The notes under the pieces: model-generated
The model's input: the letters and a program-made list of their open reading frames with translations, nothing else
What the model was told of the DNA's origin: nothing
Database searches by the model: none
Shown here: in pieces, positions 31,063 through 51,404 of the stretch
How positions within the stretch are numbered: position 1 is the stretch's first letter
Layout of the letters: the number at the start of each line of letters is the position of its first letter
Origin: a virus
Taxonomy: Duplodnaviria > Caudoviricetes
Strand: one strand, 5' to 3'
IMG/VR virus record: IMGVR_UViG_3300032327_000792
Length of the DNA stretch: 64,000 nucleotides
Translations under genes and position numbers: made by a program

Positions 31063-31323
31063 TTATAGTGTCTTGCCGGTCATGGTCAAAATTTGCTCAA
31101 GCAATTCATAATCTGATTGTTCCTGTCCAAATCCGGCCTTGTGCGCAAGTTTGACTGCTTTCTTGAGAATACCGGGTTTGATTTCCATTTCTTCGGCTAC
31201 TGCTTTGATTGTGTCGTTCAATCCACCTGACAGTGTTTCAATTTCGTGCATGACTTGGCTACCTTCATTGAGAATCTGAGTCAATTTCATAGTCTGTTCT
31301 GCTGTAAATACGCGATTACTCAT
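31063..31323 (-). CDS. T4 DsbA/GapR-like dsDNA-binding protein
   Basis: 86-aa helical protein; IKAVAEEMEIKPGILKKAVKLAHK pattern. Confidence 0.55.
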   Translation of the reverse strand: MSNRVFTAEQTMKLTQILNEGSQVMHEIETLSGGLNDTIKAVAEEMEIKPGILKKAVKLAHKAGFGQEQSDYELLEQILTMTGKTL

Positions 31324-32065
31324 TTTTAATTTCCTTTGTAGTTAATAACTTCTTTTTTGCTTCTCTTAATTTTGCTGCTGCTGATTTTTTTGCTTTTGTT
31401 TCTTCTGAATCTCTTTTACCCATACTGCTTTCGGATATTTTCTTTCTCAATTCTGGATTGCTTGCTCTTATTATAGCAGCTTTCTTATAGTTTTGTCTAG
31501 CAATTTCTGAATGTTTTTTACCTTTAGTATTAGATGGTTTTCCAATCTTTGCTTTGGATAAGTTACGACTATGCTCCGGGCTAGGAGATTTACCAAACAT
31601 AGGATTTTTTTGTCCTTTTTTTGAAGCTGACATTTTTTTCTTAGTTTCTTCTGTATGAGGTTTTCTACCGGTTGTCTTTCGTTGTTCTCGCATCCGTTGT
31701 GCTTGTTCAACTCCATAAATTTCCTCCCATGTTTTTCCTTTTTTAGCAAGAGACCATTTTGCTTTAGTTTTATCTGTGTGGATCGTTCCACTGGCACCCT
31801 CACCACCATTAGCTAAATTACACAAACATCCTGTTCCGTCTGATAATTTGCCATATTGAGATATAAGGCTTATTTCTAAATCCCATGCCTCTTGTTCTGT
31901 TAGATTTTCTGCAAGTCTTTTAGATATAAACCCATGCTTAGAAACTATATTTTTCCAAAACGGATTTCTTTTATTGGATAACTCTCTCTTTGATTTTCCT
32001 TTACCGATATAAAATGGATCTCCGGTAGGATCGTCAGCTTTGTAATGTGCATAAACGTAGAACAT
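31316..32065 (-). mobile_element. GIY-YIG homing endonuclease with NUMOD3 repeats
   Basis: YVYAH...FYIGKG...R...E; HTDKTKAKWS, HTEETKKKMS and HSEIAR repeats; AT-rich. Confidence 0.9.
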
Positions 32066-32119
32066 AAACACCTCTTAGTATGTGTTTATTTAGCTTATTG
32101 ATGTAAAAATCAAATAAAA

Positions 32120-32353: not shown

Positions 32354-32986
32354 TTATTTTCCAGCCTTTGCTAGGGCTGCTCCTTTGTTGAAACTGGGCG
32401 ACCATGGACTCATTCCATCTACTCCGCCACGTGCTCTTGACCAGTTGTATCCGGCTCTGTGTCCAGAACAATCCTTGGTACATTCACTGCCCAAAAAACT
32501 CAACTCGTCCAACTGATCCTTGAGAAAGGTATCAGCAAATGCCTTGCATAACTCTCGAATCTTGGTGTTGCGTGTATATTGTGTGTGAAACTGTTTGCCT
32601 TCAAATGTCTGAGCAGGATCTTTATAACCGCAATAAACTTTGTGTATACCGTGCTGTTCAATCAGATCCTGACAACTTTTGCCTTCACGTTCGGCCATGA
32701 ACTCGTTGCAAGGACTCAGTGTGGTTATCACAATACTGCCCTCTGGTACGGGTCCAAACCTGGCAGTGTAGTTGTCAATTGCTGCACGTTCGGCATGTGT
32801 TCGACGACCGTCTTGCGCAGGACGATTGATACCCACTACACAGTTGTTGTTGGGATCCAACACTGCAGCGCCAACCATGCCCAAGTTTTGATTTCCGTAC
32901 TGTCCTTGAATCACCAGTTCACACAGTTTTGTCAAGATTGAATCTAACTTATCATGATTGTGAATTTGGAAGTCGGAGATCCTCAT
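32354..32986 (-). CDS. Zn-dependent cytidine/adenosine deaminase-fold protein with C-terminal Cys module
   Basis: VGAAV, THAERAA, TLSPC-x11-C; tail CTKDCSGHRAGYNW. Confidence 0.8.
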   Translation of the reverse strand: MRISDFQIHNHDKLDSILTKLCELVIQGQYGNQNLGMVGAAVLDPNNNCVVGINRPAQDGRRTHAERAAIDNYTARFGPVPEGSIVITTLSPCNEFMAEREGKSCQDLIEQHGIHKVYCGYKDPAQTFEGKQFHTQYTRNTKIRELCKAFADTFLKDQLDELSFLGSECTKDCSGHRAGYNWSRARGGVDGMSPWSPSFNKGAALAKAGK

Positions 32987-33345
32987 TTTTGTTCACGTAC
33001 CTTGGTAGCAACATTCTTTGCCTTGCCCCTACGTTCAGGATTGGGATCTTGTCTACGTTTCTTGGCAGCACTGGCGGCACGACCTTTTTTGCCCAGAGCC
33101 TGTGCTTTTGATTGTGGCAAACATTTGGGTTTGCCTTCTTTGCTGGATCCTCTGGCACAGTCGCCACGAATCTTGCCATCAGGGCCAAAGCGTACCCACT
33201 TTTCTTTGAACCACTTGCGCAGATCTTCTTCTAGTTCCTCGTTGGTATTTTTCACACAGTTAGGATATCGTTTTCCAAACATGGTCTTCATACCCTCTTT
33301 GTGATAACCTTTCCAGCAGGCCTCAAGGATCTCGCGATATCTCAT
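32983..33345 (-). CDS. Putative internal head protein (basic modules)
   Basis: MRYREILE leader followed by two Lys/Cys-rich modules. Confidence 0.65.
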   Translation of the reverse strand: MRYREILEACWKGYHKEGMKTMFGKRYPNCVKNTNEELEEDLRKWFKEKWVRFGPDGKIRGDCARGSSKEGKPKCLPQSKAQALGKKGRAASAAKKRRQDPNPERRGKAKNVATKVREQK

Positions 33346-34943
33346 TTTTTTGCTTTGTTGCCCCAGTTGGCAGCACCTTTTTTACGACACTGAACCAAGG
33401 CACCTGATGCATAGGCTGACGGCCAAACTTTGTAGCGACTTTTTACTTTGTGATAGCAGGCATCTTGTTCTTCGCGTAATTTATCATCTAGATCCTGATA
33501 CCCATATCCACGTCCGGGAATTTTTATAGGGCTTGAACTTGCAACACTGGCTTTGTCGTTGTCACCATAGAGATCATCTTCAAGATTTTCAATACGGTTG
33601 CTGACTGTGCGTTGAAAACTTCTCAAATTAGGAACGCCTTTGAATTGAAAGCGATCCAGCTCTTGGTTGCGTTTGCTGATGGTCGCAGTTCTGGTAGTAG
33701 GATTGTATTCAACCACAAAACTCTGCATCACCATTTTGGCTGGAATTTCTTGTGTTTCTTTTACAGGAGCCTTTGTAGAACCATATTGTGATTTCATCAA
33801 CTCTTCACTTAATTCATCTTCAAATGGCAAATACCAGAACCAGTTTTGAAAACCGCCTGGATTGGTATCATAGTCCATGTGAGCACGATTTCTGGCGCCG
33901 GTCATCATGCGTTTGAGTTCTAATTCAGCACCATGCTCGATAGCAATGGCTTCCAAGGCATCATACAGTTGACCAGCAAGATAACTGTCACGATTGCGTT
34001 CAATTTTAGGTGCCAGTTCTTGATATTTTTCAGCCAACTCAGTGTATAGATCTTTGACAGCACCTTCTGCTACTGGTCGATTCAATAATTTTTCCAAACG
34101 ACTGATAGCACCTGGTACGTCTGTGCGACCTTGTTTGGCCGACTCTCGACGGCGAGCTTCAATTTCATTGTGTTTCTTTTCACGCTGTGCTGATGCTTTG
34201 TTCCAACGTTCTCGAGCTGTGTCTTGCTCATACATGCCCAAGCGTTGCAGACGACCTTGGTTGTCTAACGTGTAGCCCACATCAAACAACTGTTTAATTT
34301 TTTTCTGAGCCAATTTTTCATTGCCGGCGCGGCGAGCATCTTCGATTTCACCAGCAATAATTCTGGCATTACGGTCATTTTGATTTTCTTCGTGAAACAA
34401 GTGTGTGTCTGGTGTTATAGAGAGTCGTTCTTTTTGTTGAGTCCACGCTCGATTCTTCTTGGCCCATTCTGTTCGTGTCATACCATAGGCATCTTGAAAC
34501 TGTTTGTCTGTCATGGCATTGCGGCCGCGGCTGCGTAAAAAGTCTTGATATTCAATATCAATGTCCTTCATGCGACCTTCTTTGATTCTGATATCTTCAA
34601 AAGGAACATCGTCCATGTTATCTTTGCTGAACATGTCTAATTGATAGCCCACTGGTCCCTTATGAGTTCCATATGCACGGTTCATGTTCTTCTGTGTTTG
34701 AGCAGCACGACGTTGAACCTGTGTGTAAGGTGTGTGAGGCTTGCTGACTATTTGATAACCACTGCGTTTTAATTCTGAATAAGCACGGTCAAACCCTGTG
34801 CCACTGGTATTCCACTGTGGTAGATAATAACCACGATTGTCTTTTTTCAATCTATAGTGTTGCACTGTTTGCGGATCGGCACCAACCACATAGTGTTTGG
34901 TCAACAACACAAACTGGTCTTCAAATAAATCATTCAGTATCAT
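33342..34943 (-). CDS. Putative modular internal head protein
   Basis: MILNDLFE leader; Glu-punctuated modules. Confidence 0.65.
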   Translation of the reverse strand: MILNDLFEDQFVLLTKHYVVGADPQTVQHYRLKKDNRGYYLPQWNTSGTGFDRAYSELKRSGYQIVSKPHTPYTQVQRRAAQTQKNMNRAYGTHKGPVGYQLDMFSKDNMDDVPFEDIRIKEGRMKDIDIEYQDFLRSRGRNAMTDKQFQDAYGMTRTEWAKKNRAWTQQKERLSITPDTHLFHEENQNDRNARIIAGEIEDARRAGNEKLAQKKIKQLFDVGYTLDNQGRLQRLGMYEQDTARERWNKASAQREKKHNEIEARRRESAKQGRTDVPGAISRLEKLLNRPVAEGAVKDLYTELAEKYQELAPKIERNRDSYLAGQLYDALEAIAIEHGAELELKRMMTGARNRAHMDYDTNPGGFQNWFWYLPFEDELSEELMKSQYGSTKAPVKETQEIPAKMVMQSFVVEYNPTTRTATISKRNQELDRFQFKGVPNLRSFQRTVSNRIENLEDDLYGDNDKASVASSSPIKIPGRGYGYQDLDDKLREEQDACYHKVKSRYKVWPSAYASGALVQCRKKGAANWGNKAKK

Positions 34944-37852
34944 TCTATGAATCCTTGCATACGTGCTGCTTTTTCTAGTTGCGTCATACGATCTCTAATG
35001 AGTTGTCGATCAGCATAACTATAACCTGGTGTGTCTAATTGTTTTGCCAAATGCTCACGTTTGTCATAGTAATCATTTTTGTCACGTAACTTGTTGTTTC
35101 CGCCACGGTTAAATGTGTCAGCCTCGGGTAAACGTTCGCCTGTTCTAGCACTACGAGCTGTGCTGGATCCGGGTTCGTGTGGCTCTGGTTCTGAACCTGT
35201 CTCAGAATCTGTGCCAAATCCATAATCAAATTTCTTCACAGTCTTGCCTTTGTTGGCATAGTGCTTGCGAACCAGCGCCGGATCAGTTTCATCGCTGGGC
35301 ACACGTAGTCTTGTGGTTGTACCATCTGTAAAATGCACAGTCCAAGTTTCTGGGCCGCTTTCTTTTAGTTCTAATTCTTTCTTAGAGTACATTTGTCTAG
35401 CTAGATCAACTGCCGCGGCATTGTGAAATTTTTCAACATCAATGCCAAACTCATCAGCATACTTTTGAGCAAGTGCATCACGTATTTTAGCAAACTTTGG
35501 AAAACTATATTTTAATGCTTTCATTGGAGCACCATTTGGATCTCTTAAATCTTGTACATATTGATTTAAAACATTTTCTTCATCGGCGTTCAGTTCTTTT
35601 GCTTTTATTTCGTGTACATCTTTCCGGGGTGACCATAGGGCTTTACGCATGCCCAGGTACTGTTGCAATGCGCCTAACTGCCGTTGATACTTGGCCATCA
35701 TGTCATCATAGGCAGTGTCAATGTCGGCTGTGGTAAAATAATCTTCCAAGTCGGCTGCCAATCCACGTGGTAACATACGTCCACCACGTGTGGCACGAGC
35801 TTGTAGTCGTTCTATGTCTTGTTTGATACTGGCCAAGTTATCAATACGTTGTTTTTTGCTTTGTAAATCACTCAGGCGGGTTGGAATGGGTTGTGGTTCT
35901 ACAGAAACAACTTCTGTTGATGCTGTGGGTTGGGTCTGTTGATTTTTCCAACGATGCAACTCTTTTGCAGCCTTGTCCGGTAATGCTTCAGCCACTCGCC
36001 GCATTGGCAGTGCTACATCTCTGTCGTCAATGTCCTCAGGATACTTGTCTTCTTCTTCACTGTTGATAATTCGGTTGATCAATGTGGAGTGATATTTTGG
36101 ATTGCCAGCTTTGTTGGTTCCTGTGCCAATAATTCGACCACCGCGGCTCACAGTGACACGACCTGTGTCGGGACTGTAGTCCACTGTGTAACCTTGAATC
36201 ACACTTTTGACAGGAATATTTTCAAGCAACGACTGATCAGGTGTGGAAAGAGGTTCAACATACGCACCTTTTTGTATGATGTATTCATAGATGAATTGAC
36301 TCAAGAAAGTTGGATCACTGAACAGGTTGAATACTAAATTTCTTTTACTTTCTCCTTCTGGCAAAGTGTTGAGAATACTATACAATTCTTTAATGTGTTT
36401 TTTCTTGATAAACAATGGACGCATACCGCCAATGCCGTCGATCTCTACGGTGTTCAATCCTTTCATATAGGCATCAACAAATCTCAGTAGATTGGCTTTG
36501 GCCAATGTGCTTTTTGGATCAACTGCACGTGGCACGGCATTTTCTTCCAGCCCAGAGGCCATTTGGCCCAATGTATCGTTGGCAGCATTGTCGGCAGCAG
36601 TTGCGGTTGTTTGTCTGGTTTTCTTTGTGTCAGTGCCTGCGGTTGCTTTATTTGTCTGAACCAGACTCAAAGGAACAGGTCGTTGAACTTTTCGAGCTTT
36701 TTCTCCACTGGCCGGTTCAGGTATTTCTGCAGCAGATTGTTCTGCATCAGGAGTTTCTGCAGGAGCCCGACCGGCGGCCTGAGCAATTGCTGACATAGCA
36801 GCACGTCCAGCTTGAGCAGACTGTTTTTCTTTGCGAGTTTGCAACTGCTTCATTACACTGGATGATTTTTCAAGTTTTTTAACTTGTGCTTGTAATTCTT
36901 CAATTGACTTGTTGAGTTCTTTGACCTGCGCTGGATCAACCTTTTCGCCTTGATTCAGAAGAGCGTCCCACATAGATTTTTGACTCTTGAGTGTGTCAAT
37001 TTCTTTCTTGAGGCCAGCCACTTGTGCTCTTGCACCAACATCCAACGGAGTAAAATCTGGAGCACTGGTCTGCGGCGTACTGGGTTCAACATACAATGGA
37101 ATTTTGTCTGTGGCCACACTCACACCCGGTTGTGCCGGCGTTGGTTCTGTACGACGTTGACTCATTGAAGTCAGACGTTGGGCTAACACAGCATTGGCCT
37201 GACGCAACTGTTGAACAGTCTGTTGCAAGCTACGTTCTTCACCTTCTAGGTTGTCAATTTCTGTGTCTTGTTGTTGATTGATTGCAGTGATCTGTTTCAA
37301 CAACTCATCCTGTTGACGGTTGACTCCTTTGAGATCAGAAATATTTTTTTCAGTTTTTTCTTGATTTGCAAACTCGTCTTTGACCAAAGCTTCAATGTCA
37401 CTGTTGGCCGATGGATATTTTGCACGAATTTTTTGTAGTTCTCTTGCTACCTGTGCATCTGAAGCAGTTTTTCCACTGAGTTCTTTGTTTTTCTTCTCAA
37501 ACAATTTCATTTGTGCTATGTGATTCAACATTTTTATTGTTTGATTATAGCTGGTCAATACCCGATACATAAAATTAAATTTGCCCATGTCTGGCAAGCT
37601 GTCGTAGTAGGCAATGATGTCAGGGAAATATTTTGGATCAATGCTGTATGTGCGATCATCTAAAAATGTCAGCTGGGCTGGTTTGCCTTTGGGTTCATAA
37701 TTGATAGCATTGATCAATGCTCCCATGTTGGCATTGCCCAATGCACGATGTTGGCTTCCTGCTTTTTCTGGATTGACCGGCATATAGCTAGATTTTGGTC
37801 TTGGATCTCCTTCGGGAGTGCCGGGAGTTTCAAATAGGTCAAATACAATCAT
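34940..37852 (-). CDS. Putative modular internal head protein with coiled coils
   Basis: MIVFDLFE leader; 970 aa. Confidence 0.65.
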   Translation of the reverse strand: MIVFDLFETPGTPEGDPRPKSSYMPVNPEKAGSQHRALGNANMGALINAINYEPKGKPAQLTFLDDRTYSIDPKYFPDIIAYYDSLPDMGKFNFMYRVLTSYNQTIKMLNHIAQMKLFEKKNKELSGKTASDAQVARELQKIRAKYPSANSDIEALVKDEFANQEKTEKNISDLKGVNRQQDELLKQITAINQQQDTEIDNLEGEERSLQQTVQQLRQANAVLAQRLTSMSQRRTEPTPAQPGVSVATDKIPLYVEPSTPQTSAPDFTPLDVGARAQVAGLKKEIDTLKSQKSMWDALLNQGEKVDPAQVKELNKSIEELQAQVKKLEKSSSVMKQLQTRKEKQSAQAGRAAMSAIAQAAGRAPAETPDAEQSAAEIPEPASGEKARKVQRPVPLSLVQTNKATAGTDTKKTRQTTATAADNAANDTLGQMASGLEENAVPRAVDPKSTLAKANLLRFVDAYMKGLNTVEIDGIGGMRPLFIKKKHIKELYSILNTLPEGESKRNLVFNLFSDPTFLSQFIYEYIIQKGAYVEPLSTPDQSLLENIPVKSVIQGYTVDYSPDTGRVTVSRGGRIIGTGTNKAGNPKYHSTLINRIINSEEEDKYPEDIDDRDVALPMRRVAEALPDKAAKELHRWKNQQTQPTASTEVVSVEPQPIPTRLSDLQSKKQRIDNLASIKQDIERLQARATRGGRMLPRGLAADLEDYFTTADIDTAYDDMMAKYQRQLGALQQYLGMRKALWSPRKDVHEIKAKELNADEENVLNQYVQDLRDPNGAPMKALKYSFPKFAKIRDALAQKYADEFGIDVEKFHNAAAVDLARQMYSKKELELKESGPETWTVHFTDGTTTRLRVPSDETDPALVRKHYANKGKTVKKFDYGFGTDSETGSEPEPHEPGSSTARSARTGERLPEADTFNRGGNNKLRDKNDYYDKREHLAKQLDTPGYSYADRQLIRDRMTQLEKAARMQGFIE

Positions 37853-37854
37853 AA

Positions 37855-38565
37855 TTACGCTTCTTCAATATAGTCTTGTGACTGGTTGTTCTTTTTTTGT
37901 CTTGCACGGAACATCTCAATGGCCATGGCAGCTTCGTCAATGTTTTTGAATCTGGACTTCATGGTGCGATTGCCGTGACGTATTTCAAATCCTGTGCGTT
38001 CATTGCCGTGTATTTCAAACATAGCGCCATTTTCCAACATCATGGATTTGACACAGGCTGATTCAGCATAGGTAGGATTTTGCATTAGGGGCGTTGGGTC
38101 CTGAATCACCGGATCTTCTTCTGTGGGGTCTTCTGCAATTTCTTTTGCCTTGGCCACAAGATCCCGGTTGTTTTTGTCTTTTTTGCCAATGCCTCGATCC
38201 ACTGGCTTTTGACCTAGGTCACGATCTATTTTCTTTTCCAATGTCTCTTCAACACTTTCTAAATAATCTATCAAACTCTTTTTGACTTTGTCTAGAAGTT
38301 TTTCTTCTTCGACTTGAGCTTCTTCAACAACTTCTTTGTCCGCCTCTTCATCATGTTCAACACTGTCGCCTACCATGTAGCCGCTCATGGGGTTCTTGGC
38401 GTTGGGATTGCCGCCCAGTATCTTCTGTGTTTTTGGTTTGAACAGTGCCGGCAACTGCTTGACACTTTTTTGGTCCGCATTCAATCCGTGCGTGACATCC
38501 ACAGGAGTGATACGTCCTTCCAACTTGGCCAAACGTTCAATGATATCGCGAATGTCATTGCTCAT
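37855..38565 (-). CDS. Putative head/scaffold-associated protein
   Basis: MSNDIRDIIERLAKLE leader; acidic segments. Confidence 0.55.
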   Translation of the reverse strand: MSNDIRDIIERLAKLEGRITPVDVTHGLNADQKSVKQLPALFKPKTQKILGGNPNAKNPMSGYMVGDSVEHDEEADKEVVEEAQVEEEKLLDKVKKSLIDYLESVEETLEKKIDRDLGQKPVDRGIGKKDKNNRDLVAKAKEIAEDPTEEDPVIQDPTPLMQNPTYAESACVKSMMLENGAMFEIHGNERTGFEIRHGNRTMKSRFKNIDEAAMAIEMFRARQKKNNQSQDYIEEA

Positions 38566-38566
38566 A

Positions 38567-39007
38567 TTATGCTCTTGCGTCCTTTAGATAGCTGCTGAGT
38601 TGCCAATAATATTTGCCGTGTGCAGACTGACGTTCGGCCATGAAGTTGGCGATGTCCTCACGTTTTTCGGACTGTGCAACAGCAAACACTTGCATGACCA
38701 AATCTTTCATGGTCTGTGTGTCTGCCAACAATTCTTCCAACATAAGTCTGGCACGTGGAACTTTGGTCTGTGGTGGTATGATTGATAGTTCTTGAAAACG
38801 CTCAAAACTTCCAGGAGCATATTCTTCCAAGGTACGGATATATTCAGCTATGGCATCTGTTGCACCGTAGGCATCTTGATAGATTTCAGCAAAGAATTCG
38901 TGCAACTGTCCAAAATCTGGCCCTTCCACGTTCCAATGAAACATGTGTGCCTTTAAATAATAAGCAAAATTGCTGGCCAATAACTGTTTTAATAAATCAC
39001 TTAGCAT
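38567..39007 (-). CDS. dps: Dps/ferritin-like DNA-protecting protein
   Basis: HMFHWNVEGPDFGQLHEFF...D..AE ferroxidase signature. Confidence 0.92.
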   Translation of the reverse strand: MLSDLLKQLLASNFAYYLKAHMFHWNVEGPDFGQLHEFFAEIYQDAYGATDAIAEYIRTLEEYAPGSFERFQELSIIPPQTKVPRARLMLEELLADTQTMKDLVMQVFAVAQSEKREDIANFMAERQSAHGKYYWQLSSYLKDARA

Positions 39008-39200
39008 TCTTTTTTCCCTGTTTCTTTTTGTATTCTTTAGGCGTGTTTGGTGTTGGATCTGAGCCTGTTGAGTATTTACCTGTAAAGAAGTTTCCACCAT
39101 TTCTTGTGATCATGCCGCCCATGGGTGCAGCCACTGTGGCTATGGCACCGGATCCAGTGGATCCCGCCGAAGCATTTTCCATTATTTCACGAATTTTCAT
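38997..39200 (-). CDS. Small putative internal head protein
   Basis: MKIREIME leader, Ala/Gly-rich core, Lys-rich tail. Confidence 0.6.
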   Translation of the reverse strand: MKIREIMENASAGSTGSGAIATVAAPMGGMITRNGGNFFTGKYSTGSDPTPNTPKEYKKKQGKKNAK

Positions 39201-39483
39201 TGTAGATCCTCAGTAAATTTTCGCCTTTGATATTGGCATCGCCCAACTCTACACGCATGTTCGCCACTGTAAGTTGTGCTAAATGTGGGGGCACAAGTTC
39301 GTGACGGATTTGGTATTGGCCAGGTTCGGCATTGATCTGGATCAGTTCTTCAAGATATTCATTGTTCCAAATCCAAGTGCGTTCTGTGAACAACTCGTCA
39401 TTGACATACACACGATAAACCGGGGGCAATCCCTCCCAATCGCAATGCACATCACACAGCACTCGCACGAATTTCTTGTCCAT
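39187..39483 (-). CDS. Hypothetical late protein
   Basis: 98 aa; CTAAATA 4 nt before the ATG. Confidence 0.7.
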   Translation of the reverse strand: MDKKFVRVLCDVHCDWEGLPPVYRVYVNDELFTERTWIWNNEYLEELIQINAEPGQYQIRHELVPPHLAQLTVANMRVELGDANIKGENLLRIYNENS

Positions 39484-39514
39484 GCTGTATTTAGCGGTTT
39501 TGAATTTTAAGAGT

Positions 39515-40480
39515 TTAAAGACTAAATGGATCTATGATCACAATTTGGCCGTCTTTTCTACGACCCAAGTTTTCAATTGAACGCAAATCCAACGGTGCTA
39601 GTCCGCCAACGGCATCTTCGAGATCCTGTGTGGCCATGACCAATCCGTCTACTTGTTCTTCTGACAATCCCAGCGGTCTTTTTTTGTTTTGGTAGAATGC
39701 TGCCAGGGCTTGTTCACCACGAGGTAGGGCACTCATTAGATCTTCAATGTATTCCAGTACCTGGTCTTCGCCTGACACAGGGCCAAGATATTCCATTTCG
39801 TACACAAAGTAGGTTTCGCCATCCACCTCAAAATCACCAGCGTTGTAAATTCTTGGATAGTGTGGATTGCGTTGATTACGCAGAAAAAAGCCCACATAAG
39901 TTTTTACTATGTCTTCACGTTCGTCTTCGCCAATGCCCACAACTTTGAGCACTGTGCCACGTGGGCTTAGAAATGCTATTTGATCACGGCCTTCACCAAG
40001 ATAACCATAGCCACGATCAACAAAGTAATCTTGTATGCGCTGACTAACTGACAATTCATCTTCGTCGTTGATTTCGTTGATTGGTTGCCAAGTCATTGCT
40101 TTGGCACCTTTGGTGATAGGGTTGAATCCGTGGCGCTGGTATAGTTTGGTCAATGATTTTTGACTTATTTTTCCTTTGGCCCAAGGGTACAATGTTAATG
40201 TAATGCCCGCCGACTGTGCTTGACGTTGCAGTTCTTTGATGGCACGACTGCCTATGCCCTTGCGTTGCTCAGGACCGGCCATTAGCCAATCTATTTCCAC
40301 TGTGTTAGAATCAATGCCGGGTTTGAGTTTGAATGCAGCAAACTGTTGATCTTGACCTGTGCCCCAAACCATGACTCGATCAGCTTGACCATAGGGCCAT
40401 TCTGGGTACTGACTGTAGACCTGATCTATCCAGGCCTGTGCTGTACCTGTGTTTTCAACTAAGAATTCACAAGCTCGCAT
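39515..40480 (-). CDS. GNAT acetyltransferase + protein-kinase-like fusion
   Basis: QRKGIGSRAI acetyl-CoA loop; after INEINDE come LGEGRDQIAF, VLKV, DLRSIEN and IIDP. Confidence 0.7.
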   Translation of the reverse strand: MRACEFLVENTGTAQAWIDQVYSQYPEWPYGQADRVMVWGTGQDQQFAAFKLKPGIDSNTVEIDWLMAGPEQRKGIGSRAIKELQRQAQSAGITLTLYPWAKGKISQKSLTKLYQRHGFNPITKGAKAMTWQPINEINDEDELSVSQRIQDYFVDRGYGYLGEGRDQIAFLSPRGTVLKVVGIGEDEREDIVKTYVGFFLRNQRNPHYPRIYNAGDFEVDGETYFVYEMEYLGPVSGEDQVLEYIEDLMSALPRGEQALAAFYQNKKRPLGLSEEQVDGLVMATQDLEDAVGGLAPLDLRSIENLGRRKDGQIVIIDPFSL

Positions 40481-40708
40481 TTATTCAAAGTCCACTGACT
40501 CTTGTACTAACTGTTTTGTTTTTAATTCTTTTACTGATCCCACATGGTGGTCTTGTATTTGATACTGTTGTTTGAGTATGGTTCTTGCAATTTGTGCGTT
40601 GGGTGCCCAGACCTGTGCGTCAACATAGCCCACATAGTTGGGTTGATTGACACGAACTTTGGCTGTCCAAAGTCGGGCGGATTCTGTTACGAACTCACGT
40701 AATCTCAT
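40481..40708 (-). CDS. Small putative internal head protein
   Basis: MRLREFVTE leader. Confidence 0.65.
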   Translation of the reverse strand: MRLREFVTESARLWTAKVRVNQPNYVGYVDAQVWAPNAQIARTILKQQYQIQDHHVGSVKELKTKQLVQESVDFE

Positions 40709-40714
40709 AATATA

Positions 40715-41533
40715 TTACTTATTCTTCTTTTTTCCAGACTTCATATTGGCACACCAATGATACATCTTGGCTTTTTCTCCCGATGCATTTTTAGCCTTGC
40801 GACGTAGATCAGTTACTGATCCTGCACAACTGGCACCTGCACGTTTCACACGTCCTGGACGGCTTTTGCCTTTAACTTTACCGTCAGCAAAGTTTTCGTT
40901 GGTGGTCTTGCCCTGTATTAGATTTCTCACTCGATCAATCACATGATTCACACTGCTCAAGGTGGCATGTGAAAAACCCTTCATCACTGTTCGATCCTGT
41001 TGAACCATCGCATACTGATATATCTTGGAGCTGGTACCGCGTTGTATGCTGAAAATCTTGTTGTCTCTGTTGAAGAAGTGTGCAGAGTTGGCACCCAATT
41101 CCTGATCCCAACCTTGACTGTCAAAAAACACACGATATATGTTGAGTATGTCATTCCAACTTAGATTGTAGTCGTTGCCTCCCCACGGGTCATGTTCAGG
41201 TGGCACAAATTCATTGAGAGTTTCTTGATCTTCCCAAACTCTTTGATCACCACGGTGTTTGTCCCAAAATCCCCGGCCTGCATCGGTTTGATCCCAACTT
41301 CTAACAATGGTATAGCCATTGTCTTTTAGGTAATCGTACATATTGGCCGCAATGCCCTGACCGTGATAACGTTCATCAACCCATACAGTTTGTGGATCCA
41401 ATCGACCCTCTTGGTCAAAGAAAAATTCTGCATGGCCTAAATTTTTACCACCGGCAGTAGCTTTGACAGCTACACCGTCTGCATTCCGACTGATCAACAG
41501 TTTGTATTCTAATAGGAATTCTCGAGCTCTCAT
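40715..41533 (-). CDS. GNAT-containing modular protein
   Basis: MRAREFLLE leader; VWVDERYHGQGIAANMY GNAT motif A; basic Cys tail. Confidence 0.7.
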   Translation of the reverse strand: MRAREFLLEYKLLISRNADGVAVKATAGGKNLGHAEFFFDQEGRLDPQTVWVDERYHGQGIAANMYDYLKDNGYTIVRSWDQTDAGRGFWDKHRGDQRVWEDQETLNEFVPPEHDPWGGNDYNLSWNDILNIYRVFFDSQGWDQELGANSAHFFNRDNKIFSIQRGTSSKIYQYAMVQQDRTVMKGFSHATLSSVNHVIDRVRNLIQGKTTNENFADGKVKGKSRPGRVKRAGASCAGSVTDLRRKAKNASGEKAKMYHWCANMKSGKKKNK

Positions 41534-42618
41534 CGGGCACTCGCTACAAAACGTAAGTCTCTACTGATAGATCCCAACTCTTTTTTCATTTTGGGGCCAG
41601 CACGTTTGACGTCTGCACGTGACACATGAGTGTCGGGTTCGTCCTGGGTTGTTACATTAACAGGCTCATCGGTGCGTGTGTCAAAGCCGTGTATGTTCAA
41701 CTTACGACCATAACGCTGTTCTAGTTCTTGCCACACACGATAGCCACCTTCACTTTGCTTGTTGTCGCTGATCAGTGTGAGTCCCTGGTCCAGTATCAAA
41801 AAAGCATACAAATCTGCAGCACGGTATTGATTTCGAGGACCTGAATAAACACCCTGAATGACAAAGCTGTTGGGGTTTGATCGATAAGGACGACCTGTGG
41901 TGCCCAATTGACTGGTGCGTGTGTTGGTGTTAAACACATAGTATGTGACTGTGCCACGATTGTTCCATGACCATAGTTCGAACCCGTCACCAAGATCAGC
42001 AACTAAATTGCCTAAGTATTCAGACTCTTTGCCTGAGGGAATAGGTTTGCCATCATTGGGCATGAGATCCAAATGTTCTCTTTTGCTTTTGGATTGTGTG
42101 TTGACCATGGTCACTTCCATTATACCAGTGGCTCTACGCAATCTCAAATCATAGTCTCGATCGCTTTCGTATTTGGTAATAAAATCGTCGTAATAGCGTT
42201 TGGCGTCAGCAGGAGTGTCAGCTTCAAAACTGTGAACTATTTTATCAGGTGTTTCGGCATGATAGATTTCATAGCTTCGGTTGAGTCTGTCACGTACACG
42301 AGCCATGCGTTCTTGTCTAGCGTCAACCTGACGGCCAGCACGATCAAGATAGCGTTCCAACTTATCTCTACTGATTTCATTTACTTTATCGTTCATTGGG
42401 CGTTTAATGCGTACCAATCTGTTGGTACTGGGTTCTATGGTATAGCCCAGCATGATCAACTGTTTCATAATTTGTCTGGCCTGATCCATATTGGGCACAT
42501 GACCGTCACTGTTGTCCAGAGCATCCATCATGAGATTGTACAAAATCATAGCTTTTTGCGATGTGCCAGACTCAAATTCGTTAGCACGAATCTCAGTTAC
42601 GAACTCTTGAGCTCTCAT
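41530..42618 (-). CDS. Modular protein with C-terminal GNAT-like domain
   Basis: MRAQEFVTE leader; RAADLYAFLI...LISDNKQSEGGYRVWQEL. Confidence 0.65.
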   Translation of the reverse strand: MRAQEFVTEIRANEFESGTSQKAMILYNLMMDALDNSDGHVPNMDQARQIMKQLIMLGYTIEPSTNRLVRIKRPMNDKVNEISRDKLERYLDRAGRQVDARQERMARVRDRLNRSYEIYHAETPDKIVHSFEADTPADAKRYYDDFITKYESDRDYDLRLRRATGIMEVTMVNTQSKSKREHLDLMPNDGKPIPSGKESEYLGNLVADLGDGFELWSWNNRGTVTYYVFNTNTRTSQLGTTGRPYRSNPNSFVIQGVYSGPRNQYRAADLYAFLILDQGLTLISDNKQSEGGYRVWQELEQRYGRKLNIHGFDTRTDEPVNVTTQDEPDTHVSRADVKRAGPKMKKELGSISRDLRFVASAR

Positions 42619-45600
42619 TTTTTCTTCCGGTCCAACATGTTGTAAGGATGTCTTTTGTCGTTCATGTATTCCACAGCTAACAGCATCACAGAATTCTTGG
42701 CTGACTGTGGCACACTGGCCCAACTGCTGTAGCCATTCTTTTGGGCAGCCATGTTCATGAATTTTCTGGCTCGTTCAGCATCACTTTCTGTGCTTTCGCC
42801 TAATTCGGGTCTTGGATCTACGCTACGCAAATATATGTCTGCCGCAGGATTCTGTTGCTCCAGGTTAGTCTGCACTACATTGGCTTGGTTATAACTGGCA
42901 TTGGTCATTGAATGAATAACCCGTCCGGTTATGCGATCCACAAATTCCCAATTGCGGCGAACTTCTGTGGCATCTTGAGGTCGGTCAAAGTTTTGTGCTA
43001 TATCTGGCTCAATATCATTCACTGCTTGCGCTACTCGCCAGCCATAGTTTTCTGTGTCTGCAGGCATGCCTTGATTGCGTAGCCAATTGCTAAACTTGTC
43101 ACCAGCATCCGCCGCATCATCTGCTCGGTACCGTAGTATCACACGATTGTTTCTGCGATCCACAATTTCGTACTGATCTGTGGCCTGAACACGTTGTTGT
43201 AGGCGTTGGCTGTCTACAGCGTTGTCCACTGCTTGTTTAACACCGGTGGCTCGTTGCACTGTGAAGTTGCCTGTGTCCAAATTCTTGTCCTGCAAGTATG
43301 TGATCGCAAAGTCCACAGCCTGAGCCTGACTGGATGCCTGGAATGTGTAGAATGGTAGGCCACTGTGTTTGTTCAATACCACATAGTCTTTGGGTTGAGC
43401 AATTTGTTTGGCCAATTTGGCTCTGCGACTGAGTTTGGGTTCGGGTTCAGTTTTTCCTCCGCCGTAGGGCTCAATGTAGAATGGTATGACATCAGTGTAC
43501 TTTTCACGAGCCTGATCAGCGGCTTCGCCACGTGTGGCAGCATCAATGATTTCCAATGTTTCGTTGTTGTCTTTGCGCATAACACGCCATTGACCTGTGT
43601 TGGTACCCACATCACGCAGTTCGTAGGCCTGCTTGAAATCCATCATGGAACTGGCCGGACTCACACGAGCTTTGGCACGTTCCAGTGCGTCCAGTTCTGT
43701 GTAGTTTGAAAACTCTAGGCCTTCAACTGGTTTGTTGGTGGATCTGTTGTAGAGCCTCCACGAACTCTTGCCTCCTGTGCCATCAGGAACTTCCTTGTTG
43801 ATTACTTTTTCGGCCCATTGTTTTTTGAGTTGTTCAGCAGTGAGTTCACCAGCACTGAACTTGCTGAACAGTTCCAGGTCCCGGTTGCCTTCAGGAGCAA
43901 TTAGCTTGTATAGTTTTTTGTAGTATTCAGGACGCTCTAAGTCAGGACGACCAGCTAGATACATGGCATAGGCAAAGCGACGCATGGTTGATGCCAACAC
44001 GTCTGCTTCACCCTGATCGCCTATGCTTAGGTAATCGCCGCCAGGTGATCTAAATTCAATATAGCCAGGCTTGATATGTGCTGATGTATATTTGGAACCA
44101 CCCACGCCTTGCTGTACATATTTCTGTGCTAACTCAAGCAAATTGCTCTTCATCAACTCTACAGCAGAGGCAATCTTAGGACTGCCACTGGCCACGTTTT
44201 GTTTGATCTTTTTCATGGCCGAAGCAGTGTAGGTATTGGCAGCACGTCCAAACTTGTCCAGCACATACTCGTCACCCATGAACAAGATCAATTTCAAGTA
44301 GTCAACATCACCACCTTTGAATGGTATTGATATGCCCATGTGCAAACCTGTTGAATCGTTGGTGTAAGCATAACCGTCGGAATTGGCCCATGCAATCACT
44401 TTTTCCATCTGTTCAATGGCCTGATTCAATGGCAGTGGTGGACTCACAAGTTCCAATCCAGCATCATCTCGATTATCTGGGCTCAAACTTGAGTCTGGCT
44501 CCAGCACATATTCGTTAGGCACACGACGGGCGGAGTGATAACCTGATCCCACAACCACACGTTTGCCCAGTACTGTTTCAAGTTCGGCAGCAATTTGAGA
44601 CCAGTCACGAGATCCTTCGTTTCTGCTGCTGGTGTTGGTGTAGTAAGGCCAATCCAAATTGTACTCGTTCATGACATCGCTCATCCAGCGTAGACCTATG
44701 TCTGAAAAGAAGCCAGAATCATCCGCATCGTAGCCATTGCGGAATTCATCCAGTGCAGCGTCCCAGTTTGCACCTTGTTTGCGAACTTCATCTTCAACTA
44801 GAGCATCCAATAGATCTTCTGCTGCGCTCTGGGCATCCATGTATTTTTGATACAGGGGATTTTCTTTGGCGTATTCTTGTTGATCGCTGTATTTGGTAAA
44901 GCGAGGAGCCCGTTCGCCAGCTTGAATAATCTCATTCATTTCATCATCAGTTAAATCCAACAACTCCAACTGTTTTTGTATTTCAGTGTCTTTGTCCCAA
45001 TCGCCTTCGTCAACAAGCACCTTACGAATCAAGTCTTCGGCCTCTTGTTCAAAGTCACGCATGATTTGTTCATCACGCCACTCAAAGTAGGCTTCATCCA
45101 GTCTGTCTCTCAATCGATCGGCTTGACGTTCACTCATGCCATATCCACTGTAGTCGTTGGAGAAAAATTCAACAACTTGTTCAATACTGTAGGCACGTTC
45201 GTCCATGTCCATGTCGGCTTCCATGTCATCATCGCTGTCGTCATCTTCACTGCTGGTGTCACGGAATATCAATTCTGCTTCAAAGCCGGCCAAAATACCT
45301 TCGGCTTCGGGTGAATCAGCAAACTTACGCAGAGCTGAAGGACTCATCTTGACTTCGTCTAGCTGTACACTTTCAAACAAGTCAGGATCAAAATCATCAG
45401 CTGAAATAAAGTGAGTGGTGCCATCTCTGTGCTGCAGTTGAACAGCATCATCTTCGGATTCTACTTGACGTATGCTCCAGCCCAGGCTGTTTAACACAGA
45501 TTCAATTTGCGGTTGACGGTCTGTGGCATTCCACCAACGATTGGCCAGCACAAAAATAGGATCTGGAACATCATCGTTGCGGTCACGCCCAGGGCCGGGT

Positions 45601-47861
45601 GCAAATTCATTCACATTGTATGTGGGGTCAGTTTTGATCTTTGGACCGGGACGTTTTACAGGATCCACAGGATCAATGTCAGTGACATCCAGCCCTGTGG
45701 CTTTTATGTCACCAATGAACTTGTGTTCTGTATCTTCGTCACCAAAGCTGATGATGGTACTAGGAGGACCCTGTCCAAAATCGTGTTGCCCTAGACCTTT
45801 CATGTTTGGAATATGTTGACCCAGTTTGTACCAGTCGTACACATCTGAAACATCCACACGTAGCGTGCCAGCTGGCATTGTGGGTTTGAATTCTGGACCA
45901 GGCGGTCGTTGGTTGCCTAGAGCATCTAGTTTAGAGCTCACACGGCCAGTTTCTTTGAACTCGCGTAGGGCATTCTTAAGACCTTTGATCAGTAACTCAG
46001 GATGTCCTTGACTGTCTGTGTTCAAACTCAACTTGTTGGCTTCTTTGCCCACTGCTCCGGGCTGAACATCCACACTCAACGCATTGCTGAACTGTGGTAG
46101 CTTTGCTTGTTTACGTGTGGGAATATAACCCGAAGATTCTTTTACATCATCTTTGTTTTGCATCTGTTTCTGTAGCTGATACAAACGACTTTGATTCTTT
46201 GCGTTAGCTGATCCAGGACCTTGACCCTGTGCTCTTAAAAAATTCTGTAGTTCTTGATCCAGTTCGGCCTTGACACCGGCCCGGTTCATGTTTTTCACTG
46301 TTTGTGCTGTGCGTGCCGCTGTTTGTGCATCTCGAACAGTGCCAGCAGTTGTAGTAGCACAGCCAGGAGTACCTGCTATGCATGCGGCTGCTGCTATTGC
46401 ACCTAACTTTTCTTTTACACCCTCTTGTGTGGGCTTTCGGCGAGGTTTGAAAGGTACCAGCATGTTGGCCGGCAATCTCACAGTTTCACCTGTGTCAGCG
46501 TCTGTGATGGTGACCATGTGACCAACCTGTTGAATCACAGTTCCGCCCTTGGGCAACATTTTGAGACCATAGTTATCAATTACACCGTCGCCGCGTTGGA
46601 ACATCTTGCTTGAGCCCAAACTGTAAGTGGCTTCCATGGTGTGCTCAGTATCAAACAATTCAGGGTGCAGTTGTCCGTATTCACGCATCAGCACACCAGC
46701 TTGAGCATTGGCTTCGTTTTCGTATTCACTGCCTGTGACACCTGCATCGTCAGGTATGTCAGCAACTTCACCTTGACGCTGATGTGTGAGCTCGTGTGCT
46801 ACTGTGCGCAATATGTCCATGACATGGCGATTGGCCAAGCTCACAATCAATTCATTGGTGTCATGATTGTAGCTGCCAAATGTTCGGTTGCGTTTGCTCC
46901 ACACAGGATCACGTTTGAAACGTATCCGGGGCGTGTTTTCAATACCTAATTTTTCAACACAAAAGTTCACAAAGTCTGTGACAGTGTCTTCTGTGGTGGG
47001 TGCAGATTCCTGTATGCTTTCTCCACCACCACCATCGCCTCCTCCACCGTCGGCAGGAGCTTCACCGGAACCGGCAAATCCAAATCCGGGATACCAATAT
47101 CCACCAAAGCCGTATTTTACTTTTTTCTTTTTGGCTTTCTTTTTGCGGCGTTCATTCAAACTCAACTCTGCATCTTTGGCTGCTGCTCTGGCACTGTATA
47201 ATTTTTTAATTGCGCCTTGATTGCGCAACATCTTGAAGGCCAGGTTTTCAGCACCCAGTTCACCGTGTGCATCAAGTCCAGCTTGACGCATGTTTCGGAT
47301 TTTGTTTGCCAACTCTGCAATGGCGTCGCCATCCTGAGAAGCCACAGCAGATTCAATTCTGTGTCCAATGTCTTCATACTTTGACTTCACTGCTTCGTCG
47401 TTGACAGTGGCACGTTGCTTGAGTGGAATTTTTACCCAGTCATTGTTCAGCACACTGTATATGCCCTGGCTCACAGGTTGCTTGCGGGCATCTTCTACAT
47501 AGAGCTCTACATCATAGCCGCCAATGGTGATGTTGTGTTGATCATTGTACTGATACTTTTTGGCATCAAACAGTTCGCGATATACATCATCGGCATCTGC
47601 CTGAGGAATATCTACCACTAGATGTAGATCAATGTCTGAATAGGGTGTGTAAGTGTATCCGGCATTGCTACCTGACACAGTAATGTCTTTTACTTCTATG
47701 TCACTGAGTCCTAGAAATTCTTTAAAATCCTCGGCAATTGCCAACAGGCGCTCACGCACCTCGGGTTTCATTTTTTGCCCGGACCAAACCACTGGATTTA
47801 AAGTGTTGTTGAATTTAACAGCATCTGCTAAATTATAGGAATCTAATTCTGTGATGTTCAT
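42615..47861 (-). CDS. 1748-aa polyprotein: Pol-beta-type nucleotidyltransferase, zincin-like domain, amidoligase, C-terminal repeats
   Basis: GSNAGY...SDIDLH plus DVELY; AHELTH; GFEAE...DSSL...LELVSPPL...TGLHM...IEFR. Confidence 0.75.
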   Translation of the reverse strand: MNITELDSYNLADAVKFNNTLNPVVWSGQKMKPEVRERLLAIAEDFKEFLGLSDIEVKDITVSGSNAGYTYTPYSDIDLHLVVDIPQADADDVYRELFDAKKYQYNDQHNITIGGYDVELYVEDARKQPVSQGIYSVLNNDWVKIPLKQRATVNDEAVKSKYEDIGHRIESAVASQDGDAIAELANKIRNMRQAGLDAHGELGAENLAFKMLRNQGAIKKLYSARAAAKDAELSLNERRKKKAKKKKVKYGFGGYWYPGFGFAGSGEAPADGGGGDGGGGESIQESAPTTEDTVTDFVNFCVEKLGIENTPRIRFKRDPVWSKRNRTFGSYNHDTNELIVSLANRHVMDILRTVAHELTHQRQGEVADIPDDAGVTGSEYENEANAQAGVLMREYGQLHPELFDTEHTMEATYSLGSSKMFQRGDGVIDNYGLKMLPKGGTVIQQVGHMVTITDADTGETVRLPANMLVPFKPRRKPTQEGVKEKLGAIAAAACIAGTPGCATTTAGTVRDAQTAARTAQTVKNMNRAGVKAELDQELQNFLRAQGQGPGSANAKNQSRLYQLQKQMQNKDDVKESSGYIPTRKQAKLPQFSNALSVDVQPGAVGKEANKLSLNTDSQGHPELLIKGLKNALREFKETGRVSSKLDALGNQRPPGPEFKPTMPAGTLRVDVSDVYDWYKLGQHIPNMKGLGQHDFGQGPPSTIISFGDEDTEHKFIGDIKATGLDVTDIDPVDPVKRPGPKIKTDPTYNVNEFAPGPGRDRNDDVPDPIFVLANRWWNATDRQPQIESVLNSLGWSIRQVESEDDAVQLQHRDGTTHFISADDFDPDLFESVQLDEVKMSPSALRKFADSPEAEGILAGFEAELIFRDTSSEDDDSDDDMEADMDMDERAYSIEQVVEFFSNDYSGYGMSERQADRLRDRLDEAYFEWRDEQIMRDFEQEAEDLIRKVLVDEGDWDKDTEIQKQLELLDLTDDEMNEIIQAGERAPRFTKYSDQQEYAKENPLYQKYMDAQSAAEDLLDALVEDEVRKQGANWDAALDEFRNGYDADDSGFFSDIGLRWMSDVMNEYNLDWPYYTNTSSRNEGSRDWSQIAAELETVLGKRVVVGSGYHSARRVPNEYVLEPDSSLSPDNRDDAGLELVSPPLPLNQAIEQMEKVIAWANSDGYAYTNDSTGLHMGISIPFKGGDVDYLKLILFMGDEYVLDKFGRAANTYTASAMKKIKQNVASGSPKIASAVELMKSNLLELAQKYVQQGVGGSKYTSAHIKPGYIEFRSPGGDYLSIGDQGEADVLASTMRRFAYAMYLAGRPDLERPEYYKKLYKLIAPEGNRDLELFSKFSAGELTAEQLKKQWAEKVINKEVPDGTGGKSSWRLYNRSTNKPVEGLEFSNYTELDALERAKARVSPASSMMDFKQAYELRDVGTNTGQWRVMRKDNNETLEIIDAATRGEAADQAREKYTDVIPFYIEPYGGGKTEPEPKLSRRAKLAKQIAQPKDYVVLNKHSGLPFYTFQASSQAQAVDFAITYLQDKNLDTGNFTVQRATGVKQAVDNAVDSQRLQQRVQATDQYEIVDRRNNRVILRYRADDAADAGDKFSNWLRNQGMPADTENYGWRVAQAVNDIEPDIAQNFDRPQDATEVRRNWEFVDRITGRVIHSMTNASYNQANVVQTNLEQQNPAADIYLRSVDPRPELGESTESDAERARKFMNMAAQKNGYSSWASVPQSAKNSVMLLAVEYMNDKRHPYNMLDRKKK

Positions 47862-47895
47862 AGTGTATTTATTGGATCTTTTGTTATAACATCTT

Positions 47896-47927
47896 AAAGA
47901 AAAAGCCGCTGATTAGGCGGCTCTTTT
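47896..47927 (-). terminator. Rho-independent terminator
   Basis: AGCCGC-7nt-GCGGCT hairpin followed by a T-rich tract on the minus strand (and TTTT on the plus strand). Confidence 0.75.
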
Positions 47928-49677: not shown

Positions 49678-49690
49678 CTAGTATTTAGCG

Positions 49691-50696: not shown

Positions 50697-51404
50697 TTAT
50701 TTAGCCACCAATTGTGAGGTCTTGCGAATTAATCCCGGTCGGATCAATGCCAGCATGGTCAACCAAGTGCGGTTGTTGTAGTCCACAAAGAAATAATCCT
50801 GTGTGCGTACAAAAGGCAGTGATAACCATGCTTTTAATGCAGGGCTAATTCTAATGTCAGGCTGATTGTTAAAGAAATTCAATAGTTGATCTTTTTCTCC
50901 AGCAGTCAGCTTGACATTGCGGAAATAGCTTCTGTATTCATGTCGAGGATTGAGCAATGCAATGGTATTTTTGGCACGCACAACCACAGCCTCGGTGTAC
51001 TTTGCCTCACGCACAAAAGGCAAACGTCCAATGCGTTCCAGCAATACAGAATTGTTGCTGTAAATCCAACATTGATTCACCGAAATTACTATTTTGTAGG
51101 GTTCAGTTACCTGTTGTAAAAAGTCAACAAACGCATACAATTCGTCACGAGTTTGATCAGTAATAGGCTGATGTTGGCGCACAAAGTTATTTTGTGGCCA
51201 GCGAGTACGCACACGTTCACGCCACTGTTTTCGGTGGTTCAGTATATCAGTGATTTTTTCAATGTCCAAGGTGTTACGCAACGCAGTGGCTTCATTCAGC
51301 CGCAAGCGTATGCAGTATTGCCAGTGATCGTAAAACAATTGATCACTGTCAATGGACTTAAAGTTTGGGCTTTGTTGGGTCAAGGACAATGTATCCATCC
51401 GCAT
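50697..51404 (-). CDS. Hypothetical protein
   Basis: 235-aa ORF; start uncertain (overlaps the clpA end). Confidence 0.65.
   Translation of the reverse strand: MRMDTLSLTQQSPNFKSIDSDQLFYDHWQYCIRLRLNEATALRNTLDIEKITDILNHRKQWRERVRTRWPQNNFVRQHQPITDQTRDELYAFVDFLQQVTEPYKIVISVNQCWIYSNNSVLLERIGRLPFVREAKYTEAVVVRAKNTIALLNPRHEYRSYFRNVKLTAGEKDQLLNFFNNQPDIRISPALKAWLSLPFVRTQDYFFVDYNNRTWLTMLALIRPGLIRKTSQLVAK

Follow-up and report, generated by a model that had tools for sequence, protein, structure and literature searches.

The question that this locus raises is why a run of genes with unrelated products should begin with closely similar short peptides. The genes lie on the minus strand, which carries nearly all genes of the region, between positions 32,354 and 47,861 of a 64,000-nucleotide stretch of phage DNA (the window) taken from record IMGVR_UViG_3300032327_000792, which is 84,997 bp (~85 kb) in total with an estimated completeness of 24%. 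A sequence-only reading had likened these N-termini to the capsid targeting sequence (CTS) of the bacteriophage T4 internal proteins and had proposed a scaled-up system in which many enzymes are loaded into the head, cut into single domains and injected. Our analysis indicates that the block is probably a scaled-up variant of the T4 CTS and gp21 system, with an address tag and its trimming. The delivery of active enzymes into the host is a less certain element of the proposal than tagging and trimming.

The comparisons below use a 318-kb ENA scaffold with a syntenic locus (the close relative, L082), two related IMG/VR contigs, G001 (356,865 bp, rated complete) and G002, that were found via the conserved module of the 362-aa protein of the block, and a cultured relative, Agrobacterium phage Atu_ph07 (MF403008, 490-kb genome).

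A common leader on unrelated proteins

All ten N-termini on which the earlier reading was built are present at open reading frame (ORF) starts on the minus strand where it had located them (Table 1). The eight clear leaders were used to write the pattern M...[DE][FIL][LVIMF].?E. Across the six frames of the 84,997-bp contig this pattern matched eight times, each time at one of these ORF starts of the block and nowhere else. The leader pattern at the DNA level gave six forward matches, with none in the reverse and none in the control search. In G001, matches to the window pattern were again almost all at ORF starts. A very loose N-terminal expression was dropped, as it matched 4.4-4.6% of ORF starts versus 1.6-2.4% of internal Met residues in G001, Atu_ph07 and T4.

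The leaders are 8-9 residues long and fall into two types, M-R/K-x-x-E-F/I-h-x-E and M-I-h-x-D-L-F-E. They are common to eight genes with unrelated bodies, among them GNAT, kinase-like, coiled-coil and small basic proteins. The leader ends, VTE, LLE, LVE, ILE, IME and LFE, fit the motif of the T4 prohead protease gp21. Of 239 homologues, approximately 170 start with one of the two strict leader forms, and shortened variants account for most of the others.

A repeated gene start could also be a DNA or RNA element, for example one that bounds a recombination cassette or acts in translation initiation, or it could have been left by recent duplication, with no role for the peptide. Modules are shuffled between close relatives at these points, and a shared sequence at the joints could promote recombination. 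However, the leader codons vary synonymously both among paralogues and relative to the close relative (Arg as AGA, CGA or CGT, Glu as GAA or GAG, Phe as TTC or TTT) with the residues kept, and the constraint therefore acts on the peptide. The bodies behind the tags are unrelated folds, and the joint motif described below keeps only P3 and P1, leaving P2 and P4 free. We consider a nucleic acid element or duplication trace extremely unlikely.

Two of the ten starts had been described as looser versions of the tag, and both are at ORF starts. MRISDF lacks the terminal Glu, and MNITEL was rejected as an added leader, as it aligns with the N-terminal region of stand-alone nucleotidyltransferases from Maribacter and Synechococcus phages. 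One such stand-alone homologue, from Maribacter phage Molly_1 (Molly1_26; L080), starts with the tag-like MNLKTLVE.

Resemblance to the T4 capsid targeting sequence

T4 IPII and IPIII, read from NC_000866, start MKTYQEFIAE, and T4 Alt starts MELITELFDE. For head targeting, the N-terminal 10 residues of IPIII are enough; within the CTS, positions 4 and 7 contribute to targeting and positions 8 and 10 to processing, and gp21 cleaves after L/I-x-E (PMC9026906). The leader MRAQEFVTE shares with this sequence the Met, a basic second residue, QEF, an aliphatic residue and the final Glu, so that QEFIAE in T4 corresponds to QEFVTE here. As with the T4 internal proteins, a short N-terminal tag that ends in L/I/V-x-E stands on unrelated proteins, the genes are clustered and variable between relatives, relatives of this phage have a gp21-family protease, and one product, the 67-aa protein, is small and basic.

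The differences are equally clear. The leaders have 8-9 residues rather than 10 and come in two interchangeable types (MRAxEFhxE and M[FI]hx[DE]LF..E). Enzymes and multi-module proteins of up to ~1000 aa make up most of the cargo, whereas the T4 internal proteins are small and basic. Unlike in T4, the motif is also found at internal joints, giving a polyprotein layout, and the phage is a ~310-kb jumbo phage and not a T-even phage. In some homologues (among P0004-P0243) Asp replaces the last Glu of the tag (MRAKEFVADFEG, MRAQEFVTDFEG); in T4, Asp at CTS position 10 stops processing while targeting still works (PMC9026906).

Tagged proteins in the virion of Atu_ph07

Predicted mass and map position were used to assign the 140 rows of the published mass spectrometry table of Atu_ph07 virions (PMC6102473, Table S5) to ORFs. 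The motif M[RK]..[DEQ][LIFV].{1,2}E, which fits all six Arg/Lys-type tags of the window and in which Gln was allowed after the Atu_ph07 data had been viewed, has 23 six-frame matches in that genome. Of these, 21 are at ORF starts, and 19 of the 21 encode virion proteins, compared with 140 of 714 ORFs in the background (Fisher p = 1.9e-12). With the strict motif derived from the window only, 5 of 6 tagged proteins are virion proteins (p = 0.0014), and without the paralogous gp53-64/408 family the count is 7 of 9 (p = 2.8e-4). Five tagged virion genes, gp43, gp482, gp548, gp561 and gp672, are isolated and dispersed over the genome; therefore, the tag predicts virion presence regardless of gene neighbourhood.

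The genes gp53-gp64 (41.8-50.6 kb) encode tandem ~250-aa paralogues, all starting M[RK]W.QL[TNI]E and all in the virion proteome. Judged by sequence, these starts look like an unrecognised capsid targeting tag in a cultured phage. The word 'internal' is absent from the Atu_ph07 paper (PMC6102473), and the searched literature contains no paper that ties Rak2- or Atu_ph07-like jumbo phages to a capsid targeting sequence.

The published Atu_ph07 gel gives hints of cutting, with non-specific degradation as the alternative. The gp63 protein has an extra N-terminal piece, the joint ITE/T (a slash marks joints and tag ends throughout) and a 247-aa module, and this joint aligns with the tag QLTE/D of its paralogues. 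It is most abundant in a ~27-kDa gel band versus a predicted mass of 41 kDa. The gp54 protein, with two modules but no such joint, runs at full length. The gel positions of gp53, gp482 and gp483 are far below their predicted masses.

These data bear on a further explanation, that the shared N-terminus is a tag for some other machine, either a degron or adaptor for a phage ClpA-like unfoldase or chaperones, or a localisation signal unrelated to the capsid. Just upstream of the block are a DnaJ-like gene and a gene for a Clp-type ATPase of 758 aa (51358-53634; the pair spans 51358-54487), and they are syntenic with gp292 and gp293 of Atu_ph07, which flank a virion-protein cluster. The presence of 19 of 21 tagged Atu_ph07 proteins in virions argues against this explanation, as do the match of the tag to the T4 CTS, its end in the gp21 motif and its acidic and amphipathic composition with no secretion signal. 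We regard a tag for another machine as very unlikely and continue with capsid targeting as the preferred reading.

Hydrophobic-x-Glu at module joints

The earlier reading had also placed hydrophobic-x-Glu sites at domain boundaries. Their position stood wherever comparison with homologues was possible, while the raw number of [ILV]xE sites was not above chance. Homologues support two joints each in the 362-aa protein (VNE, IME) and the 533-aa protein (IKE, VAE) and one each in the 321-aa protein (INE) and the 970-aa protein (LLE). An overall excess of [ILV]xE was rejected, as counts in the 1748-, 970- and 533-aa proteins equal the shuffled expectation and only the position of sites is informative.

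Among ~240 metagenomic homologues from three module families, all 121 distinct internal contexts have Glu at P1. Of the 357 homologues of the 362-aa protein, nearly all start with MRAxEF[IV]xE or MFIxELF(L[DN])E, the two being interchangeable. These combine varied N-terminal modules (GNAT, deaminase, DUF6934 or DUF6886) with a conserved module B and a module C that is 85% conserved. Hydrophobic-x-Glu precedes module C in every architecture, with P1 Glu in 61 of 61 distinct internal contexts, P3 V/L/I/M in 59 of 61, and P2 and P4 varying. Stand-alone 199-aa versions of module C carry the last Glu of the tag at the joint position (MFLYE/LT, MRFFE/IT). The module B joint was conserved in 11 of 11 distinct internal contexts. 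The kinase-like module, an independent family represented by 275 homologues of the 321-aa protein, has P1 Glu and P3 I/L/V in 49 of 49 distinct contexts, and its stand-alone 194-aa versions start MRAQEFVAE/LN. The 362-aa protein contains only three [LIVMF]xE sites, which are the tag end and the two joints. The 16 residues that follow the module C joint are predicted to be disordered yet are conserved, which fits a recognition site better than a structural edge.

The close relative provides a second view of the same sites. At its syntenic locus every tag is kept and modules are swapped. Similarity between the window and this locus breaks at IKE/G, VAE/G and LLE/N, and in the 970-aa protein it resumes straight after LLE/N. 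The IKE/G joint inside the 533-aa protein aligns with the tag end LFE/S of a 228-aa protein of the relative. On these alignments, the conservation of the joints is the strongest new evidence, and the placement of the sites, not their number, holds the signal.

The cargo and its possible roles

The genes of the block are listed in Table 1. From domain matches and predicted folds, the cargo comprises three or four GNAT-type acetyltransferase folds, a kinase-like domain, and small basic and long coiled-coil proteins; the 1748-aa protein, with nucleotidyltransferase, peptidase-like and amidoligase parts, and the deaminase are probably cargo as well. Two or more disparate domains share one polypeptide in the 1748-aa protein (nucleotidyltransferase and Amidoligase_2) and in the 321-aa protein (GNAT and kinase-like).

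Table 1. Leaders, genes, joints and putative expression signals in and around the block (window coordinates).
Feature	Position	Strand	Details
TAAATA box	~59497-59502	-	
TAAATA box	50698-50703	-	
TAAATA box	49682-49687	-	
Terminator-like end of upstream unit	47904..47922	-	GC-rich hairpin then T run
ATAAATA box, T4-late-promoter-like	47866..47872	-	TAAATA at 47866-47871; 4 nt before ATG of 1748-aa gene; almost no 5' leader
1748-aa multi-enzyme ('polyvalent') protein	42615..47861	-	Starts MNITEL (47861), looser; Pfam and PHROG matches
Nucleotidyltransferase part of 1748-aa protein		-	Residues 1-236, followed by Lys/Gly-rich linker
HELTH motif of 1748-aa protein	46782-46796	-	Residues 356-360
Amidoligase_2 part of 1748-aa protein	43899-44600	-	Residues 1088-1321; five short repeated C-terminal modules in the same protein
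362-aa protein	41530..42618	-	Leader MRAQEFVTE 42592-42618
Module A of 362-aa protein	42376-42591	-	Followed by VNE/IS
Module B of 362-aa protein	42115-42375	-	Followed by IME/VT
Module C of 362-aa protein (GNAT fold, predicted)	41533-42114	-	
272-aa protein	40715..41533	-	Leader MRAREFLLE 41507-41533; GNAT (Pfam PF00583); basic Cys-containing tail
75-aa protein	40481..40708	-	Leader MRLREFVTE 40682-40708; ends exactly at Glu
321-aa protein	39515..40480	-	Leader MRACEFLVE 40454-40480; GNAT (Pfam) 40073-40453; INE/IN; protein-kinase-like module 39518-40072
TAAATA box, start of second late-type unit (putative)	39488..39493	-	4 nt before ATG 39483
98-aa protein	39187..39483	-	No leader; 98% conserved in close relative
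67-aa Gly/Ser-rich protein	38997..39200	-	Leader MKIREIME 39177-39200; Lys-rich tail
146-aa Dps/ferritin-like protein	38567..39007	-	Pfam PF00210 E = 2e-22; starts MLSDLLKQ, no canonical leader
236-aa acidic protein	37855..38565	-	Starts MSNDIRDIIERLAKLE/G
970-aa coiled-coil-rich protein	34940..37852	-	Leader MIVFDLFE 37829-37852; LLE/N at 36221-36229
533-aa protein	33342..34943	-	Leader MILNDLFE 34920-34943; IKE/G 34578-34586; VAE/G 34065-34073
120-aa basic Cys-rich protein	32983..33345	-	Leader MRYREILE 33322-33345; weak DUF5872 match
210-aa cytidine/dCMP-deaminase-like protein	32354..32986	-	Pfam PF00383 E = 2e-12; starts MRISDF (32986), degenerate tag

The HELTH motif of the 1748-aa protein is zinc-peptidase-like and suggests an unconfirmed zinc peptidase; Atlas leads to M78/SprT-like peptidases were below threshold, scoring <0.9, and there was no Pfam match to a peptidase. 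Residues 1117-1321, in the amidoligase part, share 36.5% identity with gp196 of Atu_ph07. This virion protein was detected with 14 peptides and starts MRWQDISSKKLTE, and its gene is just before the portal gene. The C-terminal repeats of the 1748-aa protein (residues ~1330-1700; 42615-43870) are five tandem ~50-aa modules with the pattern aromatic-x-h followed by an Ala-rich helix, and small modules that resemble them are also found in the 75-aa and 362-aa proteins.

For module C of the 362-aa protein, an AF2 model (pLDDT 73) gave a VIA-align Z of 8.8, and nearly all of the top 50 matches were GNAT acetyltransferases; Foldseek found no PDB match at E <= 0.001. On the modelled structure, module C is a divergent GNAT fold, with the assignment taken from VIA-align. 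Deaminase modules are also fused to module C in homologues. Homologues of the 272-aa protein start MRAxEFIVE/YRLSVSKDADG, and a 466-aa protein of the close relative has the equivalent of the 75-aa protein as its first module. A weak match (E = 1e-4) links the kinase-like module of the 321-aa protein to phrog_15752, a T7 0.7-type kinase. The 533-aa protein matches PHROG 727, 3477 and 38880 at its C-terminus. With relaxed Pfam thresholds there was no further match for the 236-, 362-, 533- and 970-aa proteins, and no ADP-ribosyltransferase (ART) family was among the Pfam and PHROG matches of any block protein.

The ORF that starts MKIREIME is a real gene, as it is also called in the close relative and its residues 1-27 match phrog_17311. 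A frameshift joining this start to the Dps-like protein was rejected; these are two genes, and the Dps ATG at 39007 overlaps the stop of the 67-aa gene. The Dps/ferritin-like gene, of DNA-binding or iron-storing type, is kept in the close relative. The start of the 236-aa protein may represent a second, longer leader class, since it resembles in sequence the starts of the abundant Atu_ph07 virion proteins gp33 (MSSDLRKYKNILSES), gp594 and gp206. Basic Cys-containing end-pieces recur in the block (CWKGY..., ...SAYASGALVQCRKKGAANWG, CTKDCSGHRAGYNW...; 33342-33470, 32983-33345, 40715-40870 and 32354-32440). The 533-, 272- and 210-aa proteins end in such pieces and the 120-aa protein consists of this sequence throughout; the matches to DUF5872 and PHROG 727/3477 are weak.

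This inventory bears on the explanation closest to the favoured one, that the tagged proteins are packaged but are structural, serving as scaffold, core, inner-body or DNA-condensing components that are digested or retained in the head, and not as host effectors. The coiled-coil-rich 970-aa and 533-aa proteins have no enzyme domain, the 67-aa and 120-aa proteins share the small size and basic character of T4 IPII and IPIII, and a Dps-like DNA binder is within the block. In T4, core proteins are cut to fragments and expelled (PMC9026906). A disposable scaffold is hard to square, however, with GNAT, kinase-like and deaminase modules that are 80-95% conserved across metagenomes, and the T4 precedents Alt and IPI act in the host. 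We judge a purely structural role for the tagged proteins to be unlikely.

Late-type expression signals

TAAATA was found 4-7 nt before an ATG five times in the window versus 0.3 expected. At this distance from the ATG there is no space for a Shine-Dalgarno site, and the boxes suggest late genes with almost no 5' leader. Because a TAAATA box heads both halves of the block and a hairpin with a T run precedes the first, we read the block as two late-type, nearly leaderless units. Judged from these signals, such units look like a fit to head proteins. Scans for sigma-70 promoters and terminators gave chance-level results.

The phage and its relatives

The closest counterparts of the family-B DNA polymerase of the window (28332-30989) are in two T4-core jumbo phages, Sinorhizobium phage Phosso (51%) and Atu_ph07 (47.5%), and Atu_ph07 has the same gene order from the ClpA-like ATPase to the DNA polymerase. 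A contig of 310,159 bp is listed in the protein database for the 362-aa protein, and the contigs of relatives are 290-370 kb. By these comparisons, the phage is a T4-core jumbo phage of ~310 kb that is close to Atu_ph07 and Phosso. A megablast of the block against the phage collection gave no close DNA relative, and an exact-word scan of viral contigs with the block gave no match. A homing-endonuclease-like gene (31316-32071; NUMOD3 motif, Pfam E = 2.9e-14) lies between the deaminase gene and a DsbA-like gene. It looks like a recent mobile insertion, as the close relative has only a 46-aa ORF at this place.

Weighing the tag-and-trimming reading

In the proposed mechanism, the tag would dock each protein on the prohead scaffolding core, and a gp21-family prohead protease would cut after the Glu of hydrophobic-x-Glu and thereby take off the tag. 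Multi-module proteins would be cut at the same motif at each joint, freeing the modules inside the head. Docking, cleavage and ejection in this phage, and action on host targets, are steps that we infer from the T4 precedent and the sequence comparisons. The scaled-up T4-like system of the earlier reading draws support from the likeness of the leaders to the CTS, their ends in the gp21 motif, the tagged virion proteins of Atu_ph07, the gp21-family protease of relatives and the conserved joints. The protease that the reading calls for was found in the relatives: G001 and G002 each have a Peptidase_S77 gene of gp21 type (86 bits), and gp204 of Atu_ph07 is a gp21-type prohead protease.

Several observations count on the other side. 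The 85-kb record itself had no match to gp21 or gp23, although in a fragment estimated at 24% completeness this means little. Five block genes, those for the 1748-aa, 98-aa, Dps-like, 236-aa and deaminase-like proteins, carry no canonical tag, and on alignment MNITEL is the nucleotidyltransferase family's own N-terminus. The 1748-aa protein has 20 [ILV]xE sites versus 21.8 expected. Hydrophobic-x-Glu before modules could be a structural module edge and not a protease site, and the 970-aa and 533-aa coiled-coil proteins may be structural core or inner-body parts and not enzymes. The test with the widened motif in Atu_ph07 is not fully independent, and many of its matches are paralogues; the virion preparation was only purified with polyethylene glycol, and its protein list includes likely contaminants.

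Relation to other systems and implications

The underlying principle is that of T4, but the searched literature contains no description of such a scale, of the enzyme cargo or of the polyprotein layout. T4 Alt provides a precedent for a head-carried enzyme trimmed by gp21 (propeptide MELITE), and MNITEL recalls its start MELITEL. Alt is a packaged ADP-ribosyltransferase, whereas no ART domain was found here and MNITEL may not be an added tag. In polyvalent proteins, known from phages and conjugative elements, several unrelated enzymatic domains are likewise joined in one polypeptide, and both entry into the host with the DNA and processing by a peptidase have been proposed for them (Iyer et al. 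2017, PMC5512222). Unlike these, the proteins described here have an explicit address tag and a conserved joint motif of prohead-protease type, which offer a concrete mechanism for loading and cutting, and most of the cargo consists of small two- or three-module chains. The phiKZ-like giants (phiKZ, 201phi2-1, SPN3US) also have many head-internal proteins cut after Glu by a T4-related prohead protease, and the propeptides of their ejection and inner-body proteins serve incorporation. They belong to another lineage, with S/A rather than L/I/V at P3, and no short universal N-terminal tag is described there.

We suggest tentatively, and with rather less confidence than for the tag-and-trimming reading, that across a large clade of uncultured 290-370-kb jumbo phages, extending to the cultured Atu_ph07, a tag of 8-10 residues and the hydrophobic-x-Glu joints act as a plug-in grammar, by which any enzyme module, single or in a chain, would be loaded into the prohead, released by the prohead protease in the manner of a viral polyprotein and carried into the host together with the DNA. 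In that case, the complete set of proteins that such phages inject would be readable from sequence. This set would consist mostly of protein- and nucleotide-modifying enzymes (GNAT, kinase, deaminase, nucleotidyltransferase and amidoligase) that act before phage gene expression. For giant T4-related phages, dozens of carried-in proteins per genome, many of them enzymes, would become predictable, and they would be candidates for first-minute host takeover and anti-defence factors. The proposal, if correct, would also account for the >100 unassigned proteins of the Atu_ph07 virion, and the natural short tags and cut sites could be used for loading foreign proteins into large phage heads.

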